From contig NZ_JAEDAM010000053.1 of NCBI RefSeq assembly GCF_018420025.1, positions 1 to 7,081 of the forward strand: DNA of 7,081 nt, written 5' to 3'. Positions 1 through 7,081 of this stretch are shown in pieces (position 1 is the stretch's first letter; each line of letters opens with the position of its first letter). The stretch comes from Candidatus Vampirococcus lugosii. Lineage in GTDB: Bacteria; Patescibacteriota; Gracilibacteria; Absconditabacterales; Absconditicoccaceae. Under the pieces are notes generated by a model that was not told the DNA's origin, did not search any database, and was given only the letters and a program-made list of their open reading frames with translations. The position numbers were made by a program, and so were the translations under genes.

Positions 1-90
1 CTACAGAGTGGTGTAAGAAGGGAATTAGCGACTGGGGTAAAGTCGTAACAAGGTATCCCTACGGGAACGTGGGGATGGACCATCTTTAAA
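1..90 (+). rRNA. rrs: 16S (SSU) rRNA, 3'-terminal ~90 nt; the 5' part lies outside the window
   Basis: Positions 40-55, AAGTCGTAACAAGGTA, are the universally conserved target region of the 1492R primer. Positions 31-55 match E. coli GACTGGGGTGAAGTCGTAACAAGGTA with one mismatch. Positions 55-76 fold as helix 45 (atccctacg / GGAA loop / cgtggggat; 9 bp including one G.U). The tail ggaccatctttaaa (77-90) aligns with GGAUCACCUCCUUA. The mature 3' end is placed by alignment from memory and is uncertain by a few nt. Confidence 0.9.
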
Positions 91-181
91 GTAAAGATAT
101 AAGTAGAGAATAAAATAAACAAAGGTTTATATACCATACTTCTTTTAATTATTATTGCATTGATATGAATATAAAATGTTT

Positions 182-216
182 AAAAAAAGCTAATTATTAA
201 TTTAATTAGTTTTTTT
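182..216 (+). terminator. possible weak intrinsic terminator downstream of the 16S gene
   Basis: An A-tract (182-188) is followed by the hairpin gctaatta (189-196) / taattagt (203-210) with a ~6-nt loop, then TTTTTT (211-216). The stem is almost all A-T with a single G-C pair, so it is thermodynamically weak. Such structures arise easily in AT-rich DNA. Confidence 0.25.
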
Positions 217-310
217 GTTGATTTTTTTAATGAAATTATTATATATACTATATATTATACTTAAGTTTTGTTTAAGTATAAATTTATTTATATTTATTAC
301 CAAAAAATAT

Positions 311-436
311 ATGAAAAATATGTGAGATAGATTTAATTTGTTAGGTGCAATAACTAAAGAAAAAAGTAAAAAGTTTTTTTCTCTTTTATTAGCTTTTCTA
401 TTAGTTTTTTCCAATATGACAAATTTTATTTATGCT
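311..436 (+). other. predicted Sec-type signal peptide (n-region KEKSKK, h-region FFSLLLAFLLVF, candidate cleavage IYA/IV)
   Basis: A basic stretch is followed by a 12-residue hydrophobic core and a small-residue x-A site (gct at 434-436). The n-region is long if ATG 311 is the true start. This is a by-eye prediction only. Confidence 0.5.
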
Positions 437-3400
437 ATTGTTCCTTCTGAGTATTTTCAATTTATAAAATCATCAAATCAAGACAATGTTGATTGAAATT
501 CTTTTGTAATAAAAAATTACACAGATATACAATGAACTTCTTCAGATTTATTTACTTGATTTGATAGTAATGATTGGGATGAATTTGATTGAAAAGATAT
601 ATCAGTTGATATAAGTTCAGTATGAACTTGAGAAATACATTGATTTACTTTGTGATCATGAGATAATGCAAACATAACTAATTTTGTATGAGTGCAAGAT
701 CAAGCTGATTTAGTCAGTAAAATAGAATCTTTACAATTTGCAAAAAATCTTACTGATTATTATAAACTTTTCTTAGATAATAATTTTTATTCTTTGAGAA
801 TTAATTTTGAAGATTGATATACTTTGGATTTTGTTGATCTAATTGGTTCAATGTCAATTGAAGAAGCATTAAGTTGACAAATTAAACAAATCTCTTGAGA
901 ATGAAATTATTGAACTTGAATAACAGAAAATATTGATTCATTTATAAGTAGTATAAGTGAAAATATTGAATATACAAGTTTTGATAATATTTTGGAAACA
1001 GAGACGATTTTATGAGAAGTTTTTGAACAAGTTGATGATCTTTATAGTATTTTTTCATTTTGATATCAAGATATTAAATTAGATGATAATAAATTTGTTA
1101 TCAAAAATCTTACTGATACAAAAGATGGAGATAATTTTAAAGAATTTTTTGTAAATACTGATCAATTGGATAGTAAGGATTTTGGTGCTGGTAAAAGTGT
1201 ATTGGTAGATTTAGAAAATGAAAAAGATTGAAAAATTTATTGATTTACAGTTTGAACTTGATCTACTGCAAATGAATTGATTTTTACTTGAAGTGGTGTT
1301 GATAGTATTGAAACTTTGATATGACAAATAGAATCATTGCAATTTGCAAAAAATCTTACTGATTATAATAATATTTTCTTGGAGAAAGAATTTTTGTCTT
1401 TGAAAATGAATTTTGAATGAGATAAAAGTATTGAATTGATAGATTTGATAGGATTGGATTATGCCTCTTGAGCTTTGGCTCAACTAGATACAGATCTTAA
1501 AACTTTTTTAACCAGTAATACTGAACCAGGGCTTTGAGAAACTATTTGAGATTGAGAATATTGAGATGCATCTGATACTCAAAATACTATTGATACTTTA
1601 ATTTGAATGATTGAAGATAATATAGATTTTTGAGATAGTGCAGATTATACATTAAATCAAAATGTTATTTTGTGAGAAATATTTAAAAATGCTTATCAGT
1701 GGAAAGATTGAGATTTAAGTGAAAATGATATAGTAGTTAAAAATCTTACTGATACAAAAATTTGAGAAGATTTTAAAGAAATTTTTGTAGATTCATCAAG
1801 TTTTGAAAACAAAAATTTTGGTTCTGGTGAAAATGTATTGGTAGATTTAGAAAAATTAGATAATTGAGAAATACATTGATTTACTTTGTGATCATGAGAT
1901 ACAGCAAATACAATTAATTTTGTATGACTTGAAAGTCAAGAAGATTTATTGAATGCAATAAAATCTTTTGAGTTCTTTAAAAATTATACTAATTATGGTG
2001 ATATATTTTTAGATAATGATTTTTTAACTGTAAAAATTAATTTTGATGATTGAGGAAGTTTATTATTAGTTGATTTAATTTCTTATAATGCAATTAATGC
2101 AATTGATGCAACAGTAAAAGATTATATAGAAAATAATTCAGCAAATGGAAAAGATTCTTTTGATGTTTCTATTGCAAATCTTGAAACTTTAAAGAAAATA
2201 GATTGAGTTTGAGATTCTACAGCAAACGATATTATTGATTTTTTTGGTTCAGGAGCTAATTTACCAGTTTGTAATATTTTGGATTTAGGTGAAGATTTAT
2301 GGGAAAATCCTTGAGTTACATATCAAAACTTGAAAAATACTTCTCATATCTCTATAAATAAATCTTGTGATTTATGATGAAGTTCTATTTGAGAAATAAT
2401 TATTTGAATGCTTACGGCAAATATAGAATATAATCAAATTGATTGAGATTGAGAAACTGATTGACAAATAATTTTGTGAGTTGTTGCTGATTATGTTGAA
2501 TCAGAAGAAGAATTAGTAGTAGATCCTCTTGAGGAATTAGTTGTTCAATATAATTTAATTTGATCTTGATTAAACCTTGTTTGAATTCAAAATAATTTTG
2601 ATCAGGTTTCAACTTGAAATATTCAAAATTTTACAGGTTTATCTTTCTCAAAAGAAAGTTTATGAAAAATTGAATTCAATACTTGATTTAATTTAACAAA
2701 TACTTGAACTATTGATTTTTTAAGTGGTTTAAACGATCAATTAGCAATGTCAGGTTGATATATACAATTTGATGCTGATGATTCTGTTTTTGATGTGTCA
2801 GCTACATTATCTATGAATTTGGAATGAGAATATGCAACTTGATTTGTAGAATATGCTAGTGGATGGGATTGAGAAGATTTTGATTGGATAAGTGTAAAAG
2901 ATAGTGATTGAAATGAAATTGAAGATTTATCAAATAAAATATCAAATTTAACTTGATCTTGTGATAATTGAGATTGTACAGTAAGTTTTGATACTGATTG
3001 ATTTACTTCTTTTGATCTGAATTTTGAAGTTTTGGAAGAAGTTGTTGACCCAGAAGAATATGAAATAGAATTTAATGTAAGTCCAGAAAATGCACAAATA
3101 GAAATTGATTGAAATACATATTCTCATAATCAAACTTGAAGTTTTGCTGATTGAAGCTATAATTATACTGCAAGTTTAACTTGATTTGTAACTAAAACTT
3201 GAACTTTTGAAGTAAGTTGAACTTGAAAAACTGTTAGTATTGAATTAGAAGAAGAAGTTGTTGACCCAGAAGAATATGAAATAGAATTTAATTTAAGTCC
3301 AGAAAATGCACAAATAGAAATTGATTGACAAACATATTTAAATAATTGAACATGAAGTTTTGTTAACTGAACTTATGAATATACTGCAAGTTTAACTTGA

Positions 3401-6400
3401 TTTGTAACTAAAACTTGAACTTTTGAAGTAAGTTGAACTTGAAAAACTGTTAGTATTGAATTAATTCAACCTTATTGAGAAGCTGAAATTAATAATATTT
3501 GTTTCTATTCTTATACAGATACTAATGAACAAGAATATTGTGATAAAAATATATTTAAAGATTCATTTAATGTTTATTTAACTTGAAATATTAATTGAAA
3601 TTCATTGTGAATAGCTAGTTGATATGATGATGAAGATTATAGTTTTGTATCAAAATATATTGATTCTCAATGAGAAGAAATAGAACTTGATTGATATCTT
3701 TATGAAAATAGAGATTGAGATATTGAGATAAGTTTTTATCTTGAAACATATAATCATGAAGAATGAGAAAATTTTGATATTAGTTCTTGAACTTGAACAT
3801 TAGAAATTAAATTCTTTTACAAAGAAGAAGAAGTAATATTATTGGAACAAGAAATGTTCTATGATAATGAAAAACCTCTTGTTACAGATATTTCTTCTGT
3901 AGATAATAATGATTGAACTTTTACTTTAACTGCTACTTGAACAGATAATTATTGAATAGAAAATTTTTATTGGTATGAAAATAATCCTGATAATTGTCAA
4001 AATTATCAAAATTATCAAATTAAATCTATATCTATGGAATGAGGAACTAATTGATTTTGTTGATATGATAGTTTTGCTACTTGATCAACAATAACAATAA
4101 CTCCTGATAGAGAAGAATATTTTGTAAAAACTTATGATTATGTTTGAAATTATTGAACTTGAAATATTAAATTAGATTTACAAGTTTCAAAACCTGAAAA
4201 TTTAATATCAACTTGAATTACTAATAATTGATTTACTATTGAATGGAATGAAGTAGAATGAGTTGATTCTTATGAAGTATTATTAAATTGAGAATTTAAA
4301 GAAAATGTATGAACTTGAACAAGTTATACTTTTGAAGGTTTAAGTTGATCTAAAAATTATTATCCATGAGTAAAAGCTGTTGAATGAGAAATAAAATCTG
4401 CTATTAATCAAATAAAAGTAAGAACATTATGAAATGAATTAAATTTGAATGTAAATGTAGATGAAAAATGTTTAGCTCCTGAATGAGAAAATCAAGAATG
4501 GTTATGGGTAAGACTTACAAAATCTTGATCTACAAATTGGAGAGATAATAAATATTCTTCAAGAAGTTTAACACAAACTTGAATAAATATTTTATTTGAA
4601 GATATTTCTTGAGATTATAGTTATAGAATTTCTACATGAAGATGTGGTGTCGTTAATTGAAGTTTAAATATTGATGGTGTTACTACTGAAACTGTAGAAA
4701 TATGAGTTGGTAAATGGATACAAACTATTATTAGAGAAAATACTTATACTTGAAGTATAGTAAGTAATTATAATTTACAATTAATAGATACTAATAGTAC
4801 TAAATCAACATTTGTTAGTTCTCAAACATGAACATTATTAAATTTATGAAATAATGATTATACAGTTAATATTAGAGATTGACAAACTTGGGCTAATAAA
4901 AATGTTGTTTGAATATATAGTTGAGCTAGTGAACTTTCTACATGAAATATATTAGAAAATTCTGATTATTCTACTTGAGATACTATAACAGTAGTAGTTC
5001 AAGAATGAAAAGTTATAAAATGAACTACAAATAGAGATTGATATATAAGTTTATATAATTCTACAACAAATTCTTATATAGCTTGAACAAGTATTAGAAA
5101 TTGAGAATTTGTGATGATGTGAATTCCAGCTTGAGAATATACTATAAATGCTAGGTCAAATAATTATAATTATAAAAATTATTCAAATTGAATTACAATA
5201 AATTGAGATTGAAATATTATTACTCATAATATTAATTTTGAACAAAAGGATTTAGATATATCATGAGAGTTTTCTAAAGATTATGCTTTAGAATGAAAAA
5301 ATATCTTTTTAAAACTTAATCCAAGTGAAAATAATTCTTGAAATATTAAATTTTTATCAGGTGATGATATAATAAATACTGCAAGTTATAGAGTTTTGGA
5401 TGATAATTGAGATTTGGTTAGTACTTGAACTATTGATTTGACAAATGGAGAAGATATAAATAATTTAAATTGAAATAATATTACAGTTAATTTACTATTA
5501 AAAGATAGTATTGATACTGATATTAATTTCTTAAGTATTGAGTTTGAAGCTTGAGATAATAAATTAGAATTATCTATTCCTATTGTTAGAATAGAATATA
5601 ATTCTCCTGCTACTGTAATTGAATGAGAAAAATTTAATGTAAGAGGTTTTGCAAGTCCTAATTCATTTATACATATATTACACAAATGAAATCTTATTTG
5701 AACTTGATCTACAAATAGAAATTGATGATTTAGTATAGAATCAAAAATAGAACAAGCTTGAACTTGAACAATTTTGATAAAAGATATTACTAATGATGTC
5801 TTTTCTGAAACATCAGATATTGAAGTTTGATCAAAAGATTGAGATTTACCTATATTAGAAAATTATGAAATAAAGGTAAATAATAATTCTAGAATAGATG
5901 AAGAAAATTGAAAAATACAATATTTTTCTGTTTGGGCTAATTTTAATCTTACAAGTGCTGATAAAGTAGAAGTTTTGGCTGATATAACAAATAATCCAGA
6001 TGAAGTAAATTATTATGTATGATGAGAAAAATTGACAAATTGAGTATTTGCGAAATGAACATATATTTGATATTGAACTAAAGATGTAGTTATTGAATAT
6101 ATTAAAAATAATAAAAAATATACTCAAACTATAGCAAAAATGGTAGTTTTGATTGATCCTGCTTGATTTGTATACAATAAAGATACTAATGAAAAAATTG
6201 CTTGAATAGAAGCAAAATTATATGAATTAGTTGATGAAAATTGAGATAGAATTGAAGATAAAACTTGAGTTGATGAAAGTTTATTATTATCTTGAGCATA
6301 TAGAGCTTGAAATTGATATAATAAAGATGATATAATAAATGATATAGATGTATGTAAATGATGATGAACTGCTTATCCATGTGAATGGCAAGAGTATGAT

Positions 6401-7081
6401 TCAAGTTGATATTGAGAAGAACCAAATCCACAAATTACAGATGAAGAATGAAAATATGCTTGGATGACTCCTACAGGTTTCTATTATGTAGATTTTACTT
6501 CAAATGATAATGATAAATATGATAATTTTGAATCAAATGTAGTATTTATACCACCAGAAGTAAGTGATCTTGATATATGAATTTATTACAAAGATTGATT
6601 TGAAGTTACTGAAAGTATTGATAATTGAGAAAGAAAAAGAACTTGGAATTGAACAGATAATAAATGGAATGATTGGGAATATACTTGTAATAGTGGTTAT
6701 GAAATAGATTGAAATGAATGTAAAAAATCTTCTTCATGAGGATGATGAGGATGATGAGGATGATGAGGATGATGAACTATATGGACTACACCAAGTGATG
6801 AAAATGATGAACAAGAGGAAAATAATGAAAGTGATGAACAAGAGGAAAATAATGAAAGTGATGAACAAGATGAAAATAATGAAAGTGATGAACAAGAGGA
6901 AACTGATGAAAATGATGAACAAGAGGAAACTGATGAAAATGATGAACAAGAGGAAACTGATGAAAATGATGAACAAGATAAAAATAATGAAAATGATGAA
7001 CAAGAGGAAAATAATGGACAAAAAAAATTATCGGAATATATAAAAGAACTTGAAGAACAGATACAATCTGAACAAAAATTG
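311..7081 (+). CDS. giant secreted multi-domain surface protein (putative adhesin), 3'-partial, at least 2,257 codons; requires translation table 25 (TGA=Gly)
   Basis: Hand translation of frame 2 (codons starting at 311, 314, ...) finds no TAA or TAG up to the last complete codon, 7079-7081. By hand count there are ~190 in-frame TGA, ~35 GGN and 19 TGG codons. Recognisable PEGA, FN3 and prealbumin-like motifs appear only in this frame. The N-terminus reads MKNMGDRFNLLGAITKEKSKKFFSLLLAFLLVFSNMTNFIYA/IVPSE. The start is uncertain: the frame is open from 206, and ATG 230, ATG 320, TTG 338 and ATG 416 are alternatives. ATG 311 gives the best n-h-c signal-peptide layout. Confidence 0.85.
497..1087 (+). 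repeat. N-terminal module copy 1 (~197 aa) of an unassigned ~200-aa repeat
   Basis: Shared landmarks, in order: FVIKNYTDIQG; GEIHGFTLGSGDNANITNFVG; IESLQFAKNLTDY; LRINFEDG; VDLIG; ILGEVFEQ. A 38-nt exact DNA match links 628-665 to 1864-1901. A 27-nt exact match links 734-760 to 1340-1366. Confidence 0.8.
1088..1726 (+). repeat. N-terminal module copy 2 (~213 aa)
   Basis: Landmarks: FVIKNLTDTKDGDNFKEFFV; FGAGKSVLVDLE; GKIYGFTVGTGSTANELIFTG; IESLQFAKNLTDY; LKMNFEGD; IDLIG; ILGEIFKN. These are collinear with copies 1 and 3. A 21-nt exact match links 1103-1123 to 1739-1759. Confidence 0.8.
1727..2330 (+). repeat. N-terminal module copy 3 (~200 aa; the 3' boundary is approximate and the tail is diverged)
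   Basis: Landmarks: VVKNLTDTKIGEDFKEIFV; FGSGENVLVDLE; GEIHGFTLGSGDTANTINFVG; IKSFEFFKNYTNY; VKINFDDGG; VDLIS. Similarity to copies 1 and 2 fades after ~2100. Confidence 0.7.
3035..3250 (+). repeat. PEGA-like domain, tandem copy 1 (72 aa)
   Basis: The sequence EEVVDPEEYEIEFNVSPENAQIEIDGNTYSHNQTGSFADGSYNYTASLTGFVTKTGTFEVSGTGKTVSIEL fits the PEGA pattern (s.PegA.v.vDG ... l..G.y.y.v...Gy ... v.v..g....v.v.L), with PENA in place of PEGA. By hand alignment it is ~92% identical in DNA to 3251-3466. Confidence 0.6.
3251..3466 (+). repeat. PEGA-like domain, tandem copy 2 (72 aa)
   Basis: The sequence is EEVVDPEEYEIEFNLSPENAQIEIDGQTYLNNGTGSFVNGTYEYTASLTGFVTKTGTFEVSGTGKTVSIEL. The offset from copy 1 is exactly 216 nt: gttgttgaccc occurs at 3041 and 3257, and ctgttagtattgaatta at 3231 and 3447. 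Confidence 0.6.
3875..4186 (+). other. possible bacterial Ig-like (Big_7-like) beta-sandwich domain
   Basis: The sequence reads PLVTDISSVDNNDGTFTLTATGTDNYGIENFYWYENN ... STITITPDREEYFVKTYDYVGNYGTGNIKLDL. It resembles the pattern 't.tatA.D..gi..v.fy.n ... a.a.D..Gn...s..i.l.v'. It contains one Cys pair (3995-3997 and 4058-4060). This is weak, by-eye evidence only. Confidence 0.3.
4193..4426 (+). other. fibronectin type III (FN3)-like domain
   Basis: The sequence PENLISTGITNNGFTIEWNEVEGVDSYEVLLNGEFKENVGTGTSYTFEGLSGSKNYYPGVKAVEGEIKSAINQIKVRT fits the classic FN3 layout: P.nl...t..s.ti.W..v.g...Y.v..ng......t.t.ytf.gL.....Y...V.A......S..i.v.T. It has the conserved Trp (tgg 4244-4246) and Tyr residues. 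Confidence 0.6.
4984..5242 (+). other. carboxypeptidase-regulatory-like / prealbumin-fold domain (tentative)
   Basis: The sequence is ITVVVQEGKVIKGTTNRDGYISLYNSTTNSYIAGTSIRNGEFVMMGIPAGEYTINARSNNYNYKNYSNGITINGDGNIITHNINFE. The core NGEFvmmgIPAGEYtInars.nY matches the family hallmark '(d)G.F.l..lp.G.Y.l.v...gY'. Confidence 0.4.
5585..5785 (+). other. possible Ig-like beta-sandwich domain
   Basis: The sequence VRIEYNSPATVIEGEKFNVRGFASPNSFIHILHKGNLIGTGSTNRNGGFSIESKIEQAGTGTILIKD resembles the common bacterial surface-protein pattern 'v.G.a.p.s.v.v...g..iGt..t...G.fsi.......G...i.v.d'. By eye only. Confidence 0.3.
6143..6577 (+). other. Cna-B / SdrD-B / prealbumin-like fold domain with an inserted Cys-pair loop (tentative)
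   Basis: It opens with VVLIDPAGFVYNKDTNEKIAGIEAKLYEL (family pattern 'IDPsG.VYd..t..Pi.Ga.v.L'). It closes with NPQITDEEGKYAWMTPTGFYYVDF ... VVFIPPEVSDLDI (pattern 'np..Td..G.y.f..p.G.Y.v'). The insert includes DVCKGGGTAYPCEW. Confidence 0.4.
6737..6775 (+). repeat. 13-codon poly-glycine run written as TGA/GGA, (TGA GGA TGA) x4 plus one TGA
   Basis: In-frame codons: tga gga tga tga gga tga tga gga tga tga gga tga tga. That is 9 TGA and 4 GGA, flanked by KKSSS and TIWTTPS. The run has 9-nt DNA periodicity. Confidence 0.8.
6794..7018 (+). repeat. tandem 27-nt (9-aa) acidic repeat, 8 full copies plus a partial leader; consensus [N/S]DEQEE[N/T][N/D]E
   Basis: Units start at 6803, 6830, 6857, 6884, 6911, 6938, 6965 and 6992. 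They encode NDEQEENNE, SDEQEENNE, SDEQDENNE, SDEQEETDE, NDEQEETDE, NDEQEETDE, NDEQDKNNE and NDEQEENNG. Units 5 and 6 are identical in DNA. Confidence 0.9.

Follow-up and report, generated by a model that had tools for sequence, protein, structure and literature searches.

A rare, apparently unannotated domain repeated at the N-terminus of a giant recoded protein: a candidate module for binding other cells

A stretch of 7,081 nucleotides (nt) of bacterial DNA (contig NZ_JAEDAM010000053.1, positions 1 to 7,081 of the forward strand; hereafter the window) carries the 5' part of a giant gene in which TGA is read as glycine. The predicted protein contains three diverged, collinear units placed directly after a signal-peptide-like segment, which an original prediction, made from the DNA letters with no database searches, had taken for copies of a module of no recognisable family. 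We found that the units belong to a domain family that is real and rare and that, as far as sequence searches indicate, had not been annotated in curated libraries. We consider it fairly probable that the module is an undescribed extracellular alpha/beta domain that forms the distal end of a fibrous surface protein and probably binds the surface of another cell, a role suggested by the context in which the family occurs.

Results

Three Units Align as Copies of One Module

The three units lie on the forward strand, as do all the window features given below, at nt 497-1087 (copy 1, amino acids (aa) 63-259), nt 1088-1726 (copy 2, aa 260-472) and nt 1727-2362 (copy 3, aa 473-684), and were assigned by the envelope and score of a hidden Markov model (HMM) of the family. 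The HMM envelope edges fell at about the same places as the unit limits (aa 63-259, 260-471 and 472-684, starting at nt 497, 1088 and 1724). Each copy comprises a core and a tail subdomain, delimited by the HMM at aa 65-180 (nt 503-850) and aa 182-238 (nt 854-1024) in copy 1, at aa 262-383 (nt 1094-1459) and aa 405-458 (nt 1523-1684) in copy 2, and at aa 474-593 (nt 1730-2089) and aa 599-662 (nt 2105-2296) in copy 3, where the tail is divergent. MAFFT aligned the units over their length, and pairwise BLASTP comparisons returned 37.6% identity over 202 aa for units 1 and 2 (E 1e-28), 49.5% over 99 aa for units 1 and 3 (E 1e-28) and 44.1% over 145 aa for units 2 and 3 (E 9e-37). These alignments and the HMM envelopes confirmed the three collinear units predicted at nt 497, 1088 and 1727; a pairwise alignment had been proposed as their test, and the units do align significantly.

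Most of the sequence landmarks described for the units were recovered. The KN[LY]T motif, expected twice per unit, has exactly six occurrences in the 2257-aa product, two in each unit and none elsewhere. An internal duplication within the unit, which the two KNLT motifs could suggest, was rejected, as hhalign between unit segments gave a probability of at most 1.3%. The motifs G[EK]I[HY]GFT.., ..F[AF]KN[LY]T[DN]Y, [IM]NF[ED] and [VI]DLI[GS] were each present once per unit, with a single extra match to [IM]NF[ED] beyond the units at aa 1641, whereas DFKE.FV is found literally only in unit 3, which begins with IVVKNLTD, and ILGE[VI]F only in units 1 and 2. The statement that the modules contain no cysteine had to be corrected, since the first Cys of the protein (aa 654, nt 2270, in LPVCNIL) falls in the tail subdomain of unit 3, within the range originally given.

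The patches of DNA identity reported between units were all exact (38/38, 27/27 and 21/21 nt). Codon usage in the giant gene is extremely biased, Asp being encoded by GAT in 196 of 199 codons, for example. With this bias, an identical peptide would share all its codons with a probability of about 0.06-0.09 in the case of the two shorter patches (27 and 21 nt), and of about 0.005 in that of the longest (38 nt). As the codon bias makes identical codons expected, the patches mostly reflect conserved peptide together with this bias, and any hint of gene conversion in the 38-nt patch is weak at best.

A stretch in the tail of unit 3 (nt 2159-2245, aa 617-645; LETLKKIDGVGDSTANDIIDFFG) resembles a helix-hairpin-helix (HhH). 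HhH or ComEA-like DNA binding was rejected: only in unit 3 did the Pfam HHH model (PF00633) match, its 20.8 bits staying below the cut-off of 24, and the ComEA model TIGR01259 scored 14.6 on the window against a cut-off of 152. HhH was absent from the nine Pfam families matched (E <=1) by 30 homologous copies, window units excluded. Judging from these profile scores, the HhH-like stretch probably arose by chance.

The Units Belong to a Rare Domain Family

No match over the module was found in Pfam, NCBIfam, PHROGs or PDB sequences, either for the window units or for any family member, and a 30-copy profile searched against PDB sequences gave none, so that the absence of a recognisable known family held throughout. 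A word-indexed search of 5.8 billion proteins retrieved one relative, P0001 (MBS8122346.1), which is recorded as a partial hypothetical protein and comes from Ca. Vampirococcus lugosii (E 2e-132, 38% identity, 79% of the three-unit query). Window unit 1 is 63% identical to aa 552-750 of P0001, and window unit 2 is 44% identical to aa 259-479. A family profile was then built from the three P0001 units and searched against 1.84 billion representative proteins, which returned 18 matches, 17 of them credible and 12 with E <=1e-10. The iterated local HMM collected 33 copies in 18 proteins including that of the window, each with a domain E <=4e-20.

The window units scored 177-208 bits against the family HMM (domain E 2e-50 to 8e-60) and carry the family core motifs FV.KN.[ST]D, G.I[YH]G.T.G, ..N.T.Y..[IV]F and [LIV][IV]D[LI][IV]. 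When compared by BLASTP with copies from standard-code organisms, they showed 21-41% identity, with E-values ranging from 1e-27 for the best pair to about 3e-4 for the weakest, the phage protein P0009. Further scanning of contigs from genomes, metagenomes and viruses brought no more carriers than Ectothiorhodospira magna, E. haloalkaliphila and a metagenome-assembled genome (MAG) of Geopsychrobacteraceae. A degenerate DNA pattern for SLQFA[KQR]NLTDY had no match in genome or metagenome contigs, and alignment-based locus scans recovered nothing in metagenome or viral contigs, the P0009 contig remaining the sole viral carrier found.

The module consists of a core of about 120 residues, present in every copy, and a tail of about 60 residues, lost in the phage copies. 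Carriers have from 1 to 4 copies, and the place of the module within the protein varies. Across the 30 aligned copies the near-invariant polar positions are few (K6, D10 and D111), the remaining conserved positions being mostly hydrophobic or Gly.

Predicted Structure of the Module

A structural model was calculated with AlphaFold2 for aa 552-750 of P0001. With an alignment of 30 sequences the model showed a mixed alpha/beta domain with a predicted local distance difference test (pLDDT) score of 85.6 and a predicted TM-score (pTM) of 0.82, while an alignment of 3 sequences gave a pLDDT of 39.8. Foldseek searches with the P0001 unit model returned no match in the PDB (best E 0.63, TM <=0.22) or in BFVD (best E 0.075, TM <=0.23). 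The predicted structure thus describes the module as an alpha/beta domain that has no structural neighbours in the PDB or BFVD; the suggestion of a possibly undescribed fold is borne out to the extent that the confident model of a homologous unit found no Foldseek match in either database.

Carriers of the Module and Their Context

The module is not confined to recoded small bacteria; it also occurs in Proteobacteria, in a Desulfobacterota MAG, in an SLH protein and in a phage. The window protein and its homologues P0001, P0002, P0004 and P0006 are encoded on recoded low-GC contigs and share a signal-like N-terminus followed by two or three modules. The named standard-code carriers are P0003 from Ectothiorhodospira sp. 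BSL-9 (6526 aa, three copies), P0007 from E. magna, P0015/P0023 from E. haloalkaliphila, P0005 from Thioalkalivibrio sp. AKL12, P0010 from Rhabdonatronobacter and P0011 from the Geopsychrobacteraceae MAG; four of these six belong to the Ectothiorhodospiraceae, order Chromatiales. The family further includes the marine GOS fragments P0008 and P0012, the SLH-anchored protein P0013, the metagenomic proteins P0014, P0016 and P0017, and P0009, encoded on a 220 kb viral contig from IMG/VR, which combines four core copies with a beta-propeller. The assembly of P0014 (ENA ERZ27301260) is also the source of a second copy of the P0002 contig. All carriers with a readable context are extracellular or virion proteins.

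Giant RTX adhesins secreted by type I systems, such as LapA, MpIBP, FrhA and SiiE, have non-repetitive 'ligand-binding' modules inserted among their stalk repeats. The proteobacterial carriers resemble this class: the P0003 gene lies immediately downstream of two type I secretion gene sets (TolC-like outer-membrane factor, ABC transporter and AprE/HlyD-type adaptor), and P0010 and P0017 have RTX/serralysin-type C-terminal regions together with beta-helix domains. The module itself matches no known RTX-adhesin ligand-binding module in Pfam or the PDB. The window protein is unlike the RTX adhesins in its putative Sec signal peptide, in that no RTX repeats were seen (no RTX-type Pfam match in the 2257 aa within the window, beyond which the C-terminus lies), and in belonging to an organism for which no outer membrane is known.

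The gene that immediately follows that of P0003 (29672-32596 of its contig) encodes a 974-aa GT41-family glycosyltransferase. Among the members of GT41 are enzymes by which adhesins are glycosylated at N-x-S/T, and the KN.[ST] motifs fit this sequon in many module copies. The Asn is not conserved family-wide, and the N-glycosylation sequon was rejected as a conserved feature because in the 30 copies the Asn varies while K..[ST]D and ..T.Y are kept.

P0009 is similar to phage tail-fibre and receptor-binding proteins in its gene neighbours, which match virion structural protein (E 1e-114), tail-fibre and tail-sheath (E 1e-82) families. It differs from them in that its copies lack the tail subdomain, covering the HMM only from position 2 to position 122 or 127, and in that PHROGs holds no family for the module.

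In two carriers the module is paired with an SLH region at the opposite end of the protein, as in SLH-anchored and S-layer proteins, although it is not an SLH domain itself. P0013 has SLH at its N-terminus (E 6e-34) and the module at its far C-terminus, while P0002, read with code 25, consists of a signal peptide, three modules, a beta-domain, a poly-Gly run, an acidic linker and an SLH region that scored 22.0 bits against a Pfam cut-off of 20.8. This is the classic layout of an S-layer protein and P0002 holds little else, suggesting that the module could be a self-assembly or lattice domain of an S-layer, a fibrous coat or a glue between sister cells instead of a binder of foreign cells; a conspicuous fibrous surface and stacks of attached cells, mentioned in passages of the published V. 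lugosii description (PMC8080830), would agree with such a role. A lattice domain would, however, be odd in type I-secreted Gram-negative giants and in a phage virion-module protein carrying the same module. Both the copy number, from 1 to 4, and the position within the protein vary, and the window protein is a long multidomain fibre and not a compact S-layer subunit. We regard the lattice explanation as unlikely.

The beta-helix or NosD-type domains that co-occur with the module in P0010, P0016 and P0017 raise another possibility, as such domains often bind or cut polysaccharides. The module might then be an enzyme or processing domain acting on the target envelope, modifying glycan or peptidoglycan or cleaving itself, and its near-invariant K, D and Y positions could be read in this sense. 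Neither sequence searches of Pfam, NCBIfam and the PDB nor Foldseek brought up a catalytic family, and among the 30 aligned copies Cys, His and Ser are nowhere conserved and an Asp-Pro motif is absent. We hold an enzymatic role to be very improbable.

In P0003, P0005, P0008, P0010, P0011 and P0016 a strand-like [IV][IV]LG.[IV][FY] element stands 15-25 residues ahead of FV.KN, and in the window array the corresponding element (ILGEVF, ILGEIF) closes the preceding unit. Because this element precedes the module in the proteobacterial carriers, the sequences suggest that the structural domain boundary may be shifted relative to the unit limits used here.

The P0004 record comprises 456 aa, and downstream of it an open frame of 1866 codons (4866-10463) in another reading frame overlaps the end of the gene beside a run of N in the scaffold. 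An assembly gap has probably broken a single giant gene into these two parts. The assembly of P0002 (GCA_007115995.1) is one that we take to be a soda-lake MAG.

Layout of the Giant Protein Outside the Modules

The first 42 residues of the window protein (nt 311-436; MKNMGDRFNLLGAITKEKSKK-FFSLLLAFLLVFS-NMTNFIYA) look like a Sec signal peptide on the basis of hydrophobicity, the cleavage site having been placed by eye. Residues 22-36 form the most hydrophobic 15-aa stretch of the whole 2257-aa product. The modules were predicted to be N-terminal and probably distal; the first part is evident from their position right after this segment, and the second follows only by analogy with P0002. Towards the end of the window, a poly-Gly run of 13 Gly, encoded by mixed TGA and GGA codons, was read in the code-25 translation (nt 6736-6775), and a tandem-repeat scan located an acidic linker of NDEQEE type, made of eight 27-nt repeats (nt 6798-7016). 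A matching poly-Gly run and acidic linker stand just ahead of the SLH region in P0002. No SLH domain was found within the window, which stops inside the gene; since P0002 has the same two elements before its SLH, a C-terminal anchor beyond the window is plausible, and the modules would then be distal.

Downstream of the array, two tandem 72-aa domains of stalk type (PEEYEIEFN..), outside the module, occupy nt 3035-3463 (Tandem Repeats Finder period 216, 92% matches; self-BLAST 67-94% identity). These 216-nt repeats, with 92% DNA identity, have diverged much less than the three units at the N-terminus. At least four repeats of PEEYE type occur in P0001, there with CarboxypepD_reg-type Pfam hits. 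A sliding self-comparison of the product revealed just two repeat families, the N-terminal units and this downstream pair. No Ig-like, fn3 or CarboxypepD_reg Pfam match was found over the units (aa 63-684), the weak ones being confined to aa 1293-1834.

The tandem repetition of the module in the window protein, P0001, P0002 and P0009, together with its few conserved polar residues, might also indicate an extender or spacer with no specific partner, comparable to the Ig-like repeats of giant adhesins. The predicted module is, however, a mixed alpha/beta domain of 180-200 aa and not a beta-sandwich of about 90 aa, and it is mostly present in 1-3 copies (four in P0009), often thousands of residues apart. 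These proteins also have true stalk repeats, which are domains of another kind, and a conservation of 30-40% across phyla would be high for a pure spacer. A passive spacer therefore appears quite unlikely.

Between the array and the stalk-type repeats, a weak match to the end of the third P0001 unit was detected at nt 2399-2485 (aa 697-725, ..GQIILGVVADYVE). This orphan piece of tail subdomain may, from its sequence, have been left behind by a fourth unit or by recombination.

Gene and Genetic Code

The giant gene extends from nt 311 to nt 7081 and runs past the 3' end of the window, with at least 2257 codons under code 25. In frame 2 an open stretch reaches from nt 206 to the window end only if TGA is a sense codon; it contains 190 TGA, 35 GGN, 19 TGG, 0 TAA and 0 TAG codons. 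At the alignment columns occupied by TGA in the window, the standard-code homologues have Gly in 47.5% of the cells, against a background of 8.7%, and Trp in 0%; invariant-Gly columns coincide with window TGA positions. Since these columns hold Gly and never Trp, TGA is read as glycine in this gene, in agreement with the code-25 translation that the original prediction had assumed. Code 25 is the code of Absconditabacteria/SR1 and of Gracilibacteria. V. lugosii likewise uses TGA for Gly, according to passages of its published description (PMC8080830). The window comes from a relative of Ca. Vampirococcus in the Absconditabacteria/Gracilibacteria lineage.

The records of P0002, P0004 and P0006 were found to store Trp at every TGA, i.e., to be translated with code 4 instead of code 25. 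This W/G exchange is their sole difference from a code-25 retranslation (70, 63 and 10 positions as listed for P0002, P0004 and P0006, respectively), and such Trp-for-Gly records weaken homology searches for the recoded lineage.

The GC content of the window is 21-28%. The gene likely starts with the ATG at nt 311, upstream of which no obvious Shine-Dalgarno sequence was seen. No antisense open stretch of at least 120 aa under code 25 exists within nt 497-2124, and antisense open stretches were rejected as genes, being low-complexity mirror images under this code. The window begins with the 3' end of a bacterial 16S rRNA gene (nt 1-90), recognised by Rfam RF00177 with 51 bits against a gathering score of 50, over model positions 1439-1533. 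The 16S tail (nt 78-90) reads GACCAUCUUUAAA, where the bacterial consensus is GAUCACCUCCUUU, and does not keep the anti-Shine-Dalgarno sequence CCUCC. From the 16S end at nt 90 an AT-rich spacer leads to the protein gene, in place of spacer tRNAs and 23S, and no tRNA gene was found anywhere in the window. Possible explanations are unlinked rRNA genes or an unusually long spacer that contains the giant gene.

Evolution of the Array

P0001 is the closest relative of the window protein and shares with it the signal-like N-terminus, the three modules, the beta repeats of PEEYE type and the TGA=Gly code; it differs in the order of unit types and in an insertion of about 70 residues that separates its units 2 and 3. 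In a neighbour-joining tree of module cores with bootstrap, window unit 1 grouped with P0001 unit 3 (bootstrap 100), and P0001 unit 1 joined them (bootstrap 84), while window units 2 and 3 grouped with P0001 unit 2 with a support below 60. In P0004 and P0006 the first and second units pair by position. These groupings indicate that the array is old and that the unit order was reshuffled between genera. The proteobacterial copies stood apart from the recoded ones, neither group being nested in the other. A recent gene transfer between prey and predator was rejected on this basis, as a tree with no nesting gives nothing to indicate one.

Discussion

The data outlined above define a module whose carriers, where their context is readable, are extracellular or virion proteins, and for which the explanations other than cell binding rank, in falling plausibility, as self-assembly or S-layer formation, passive spacing and enzymatic activity. 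According to the reading we favour, that of a binding module at the tip of a surface fibre, the giant protein would be exported by the Sec pathway and held to the envelope by a C-terminal anchor past the window, possibly of the SLH type present in its homologue P0002. The stalk-type beta domains and the Gly/acidic linker would project the protein outward, leaving the three N-terminal modules at the far tip, where they would probably bind a surface component of another cell, most plausibly a Gram-negative host or prey. The three diverged copies could provide multivalent binding or a wider range of ligands. We infer both the export and the orientation on the cell from this layout.

Passages of the published V. 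lugosii description report an epibiotic predator that attaches to and consumes the purple sulfur bacterium Halochromatium, and propose its giant surface proteins for host recognition and attachment (PMC8080830). The tip-binding reading fits this biology, since such proteins are the ones proposed to mediate attachment. Related lineages are treated as predators or symbionts of Gammaproteobacteria in a recent review (PMC13293708).

Several points weigh against a binding role. The proposal is drawn from context, and no binding site can be pointed to because the conserved residues are mostly hydrophobic or Gly. Both the anchor and the orientation of the window protein are modelled on P0002, its own C-terminus lying beyond the window, and the SLH-anchored carriers could equally be S-layer building blocks. 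Moreover, the proteobacterial giants carry the module at dispersed internal positions and not always at the tip, and the structural model was calculated on the P0001 unit and not on the window's own sequence.

A broader proposal is that a single recognition domain is used by three parties, namely at the fibre tips of recoded predatory epibionts (the Vampirococcus lineage), in the type I-secreted giant adhesins of purple sulfur and soda-lake Proteobacteria from Chromatiales, the order on which these predators feed (three Ectothiorhodospira species and Thioalkalivibrio, for example), and in a virion or tail-fibre-module protein of a jumbo phage. If all three were to bind the same envelope component, or each other homophilically, the triplicated module would be the predator's prey-recognition device and, in this uncultured lineage, the first candidate for a determinant of host specificity. 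We advance this idea tentatively and consider it rather doubtful, as Halochromatium, the known prey genus, did not turn up among the carriers, the link existing only at the level of order and habitat, and the unit tree shows no nesting of either group.

Repeated modules at the tips of giant surface proteins are familiar, and what is new here is a domain absent from curated libraries, with an unusual distribution. WD40, PKD, integrin, fibronectin and similar domains are listed for the giant proteins of V. lugosii, and the present module is not described in those passages of the source (PMC8080830). In Absconditabacteria and Gracilibacteria most giant surface proteins lack annotation, in part because standard gene calling fails on the TGA=Gly code. 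The module now constitutes an alignable and foldable family of 33 copies, with a confident model and a profile suitable for domain libraries. In the recoded carriers the domain is N-terminal and probably distal, and it is common to the giant adhesin-like proteins of Chromatiales and to a phage virion-module protein. If the binding role proves true, the host range of these lineages would become predictable from sequence.

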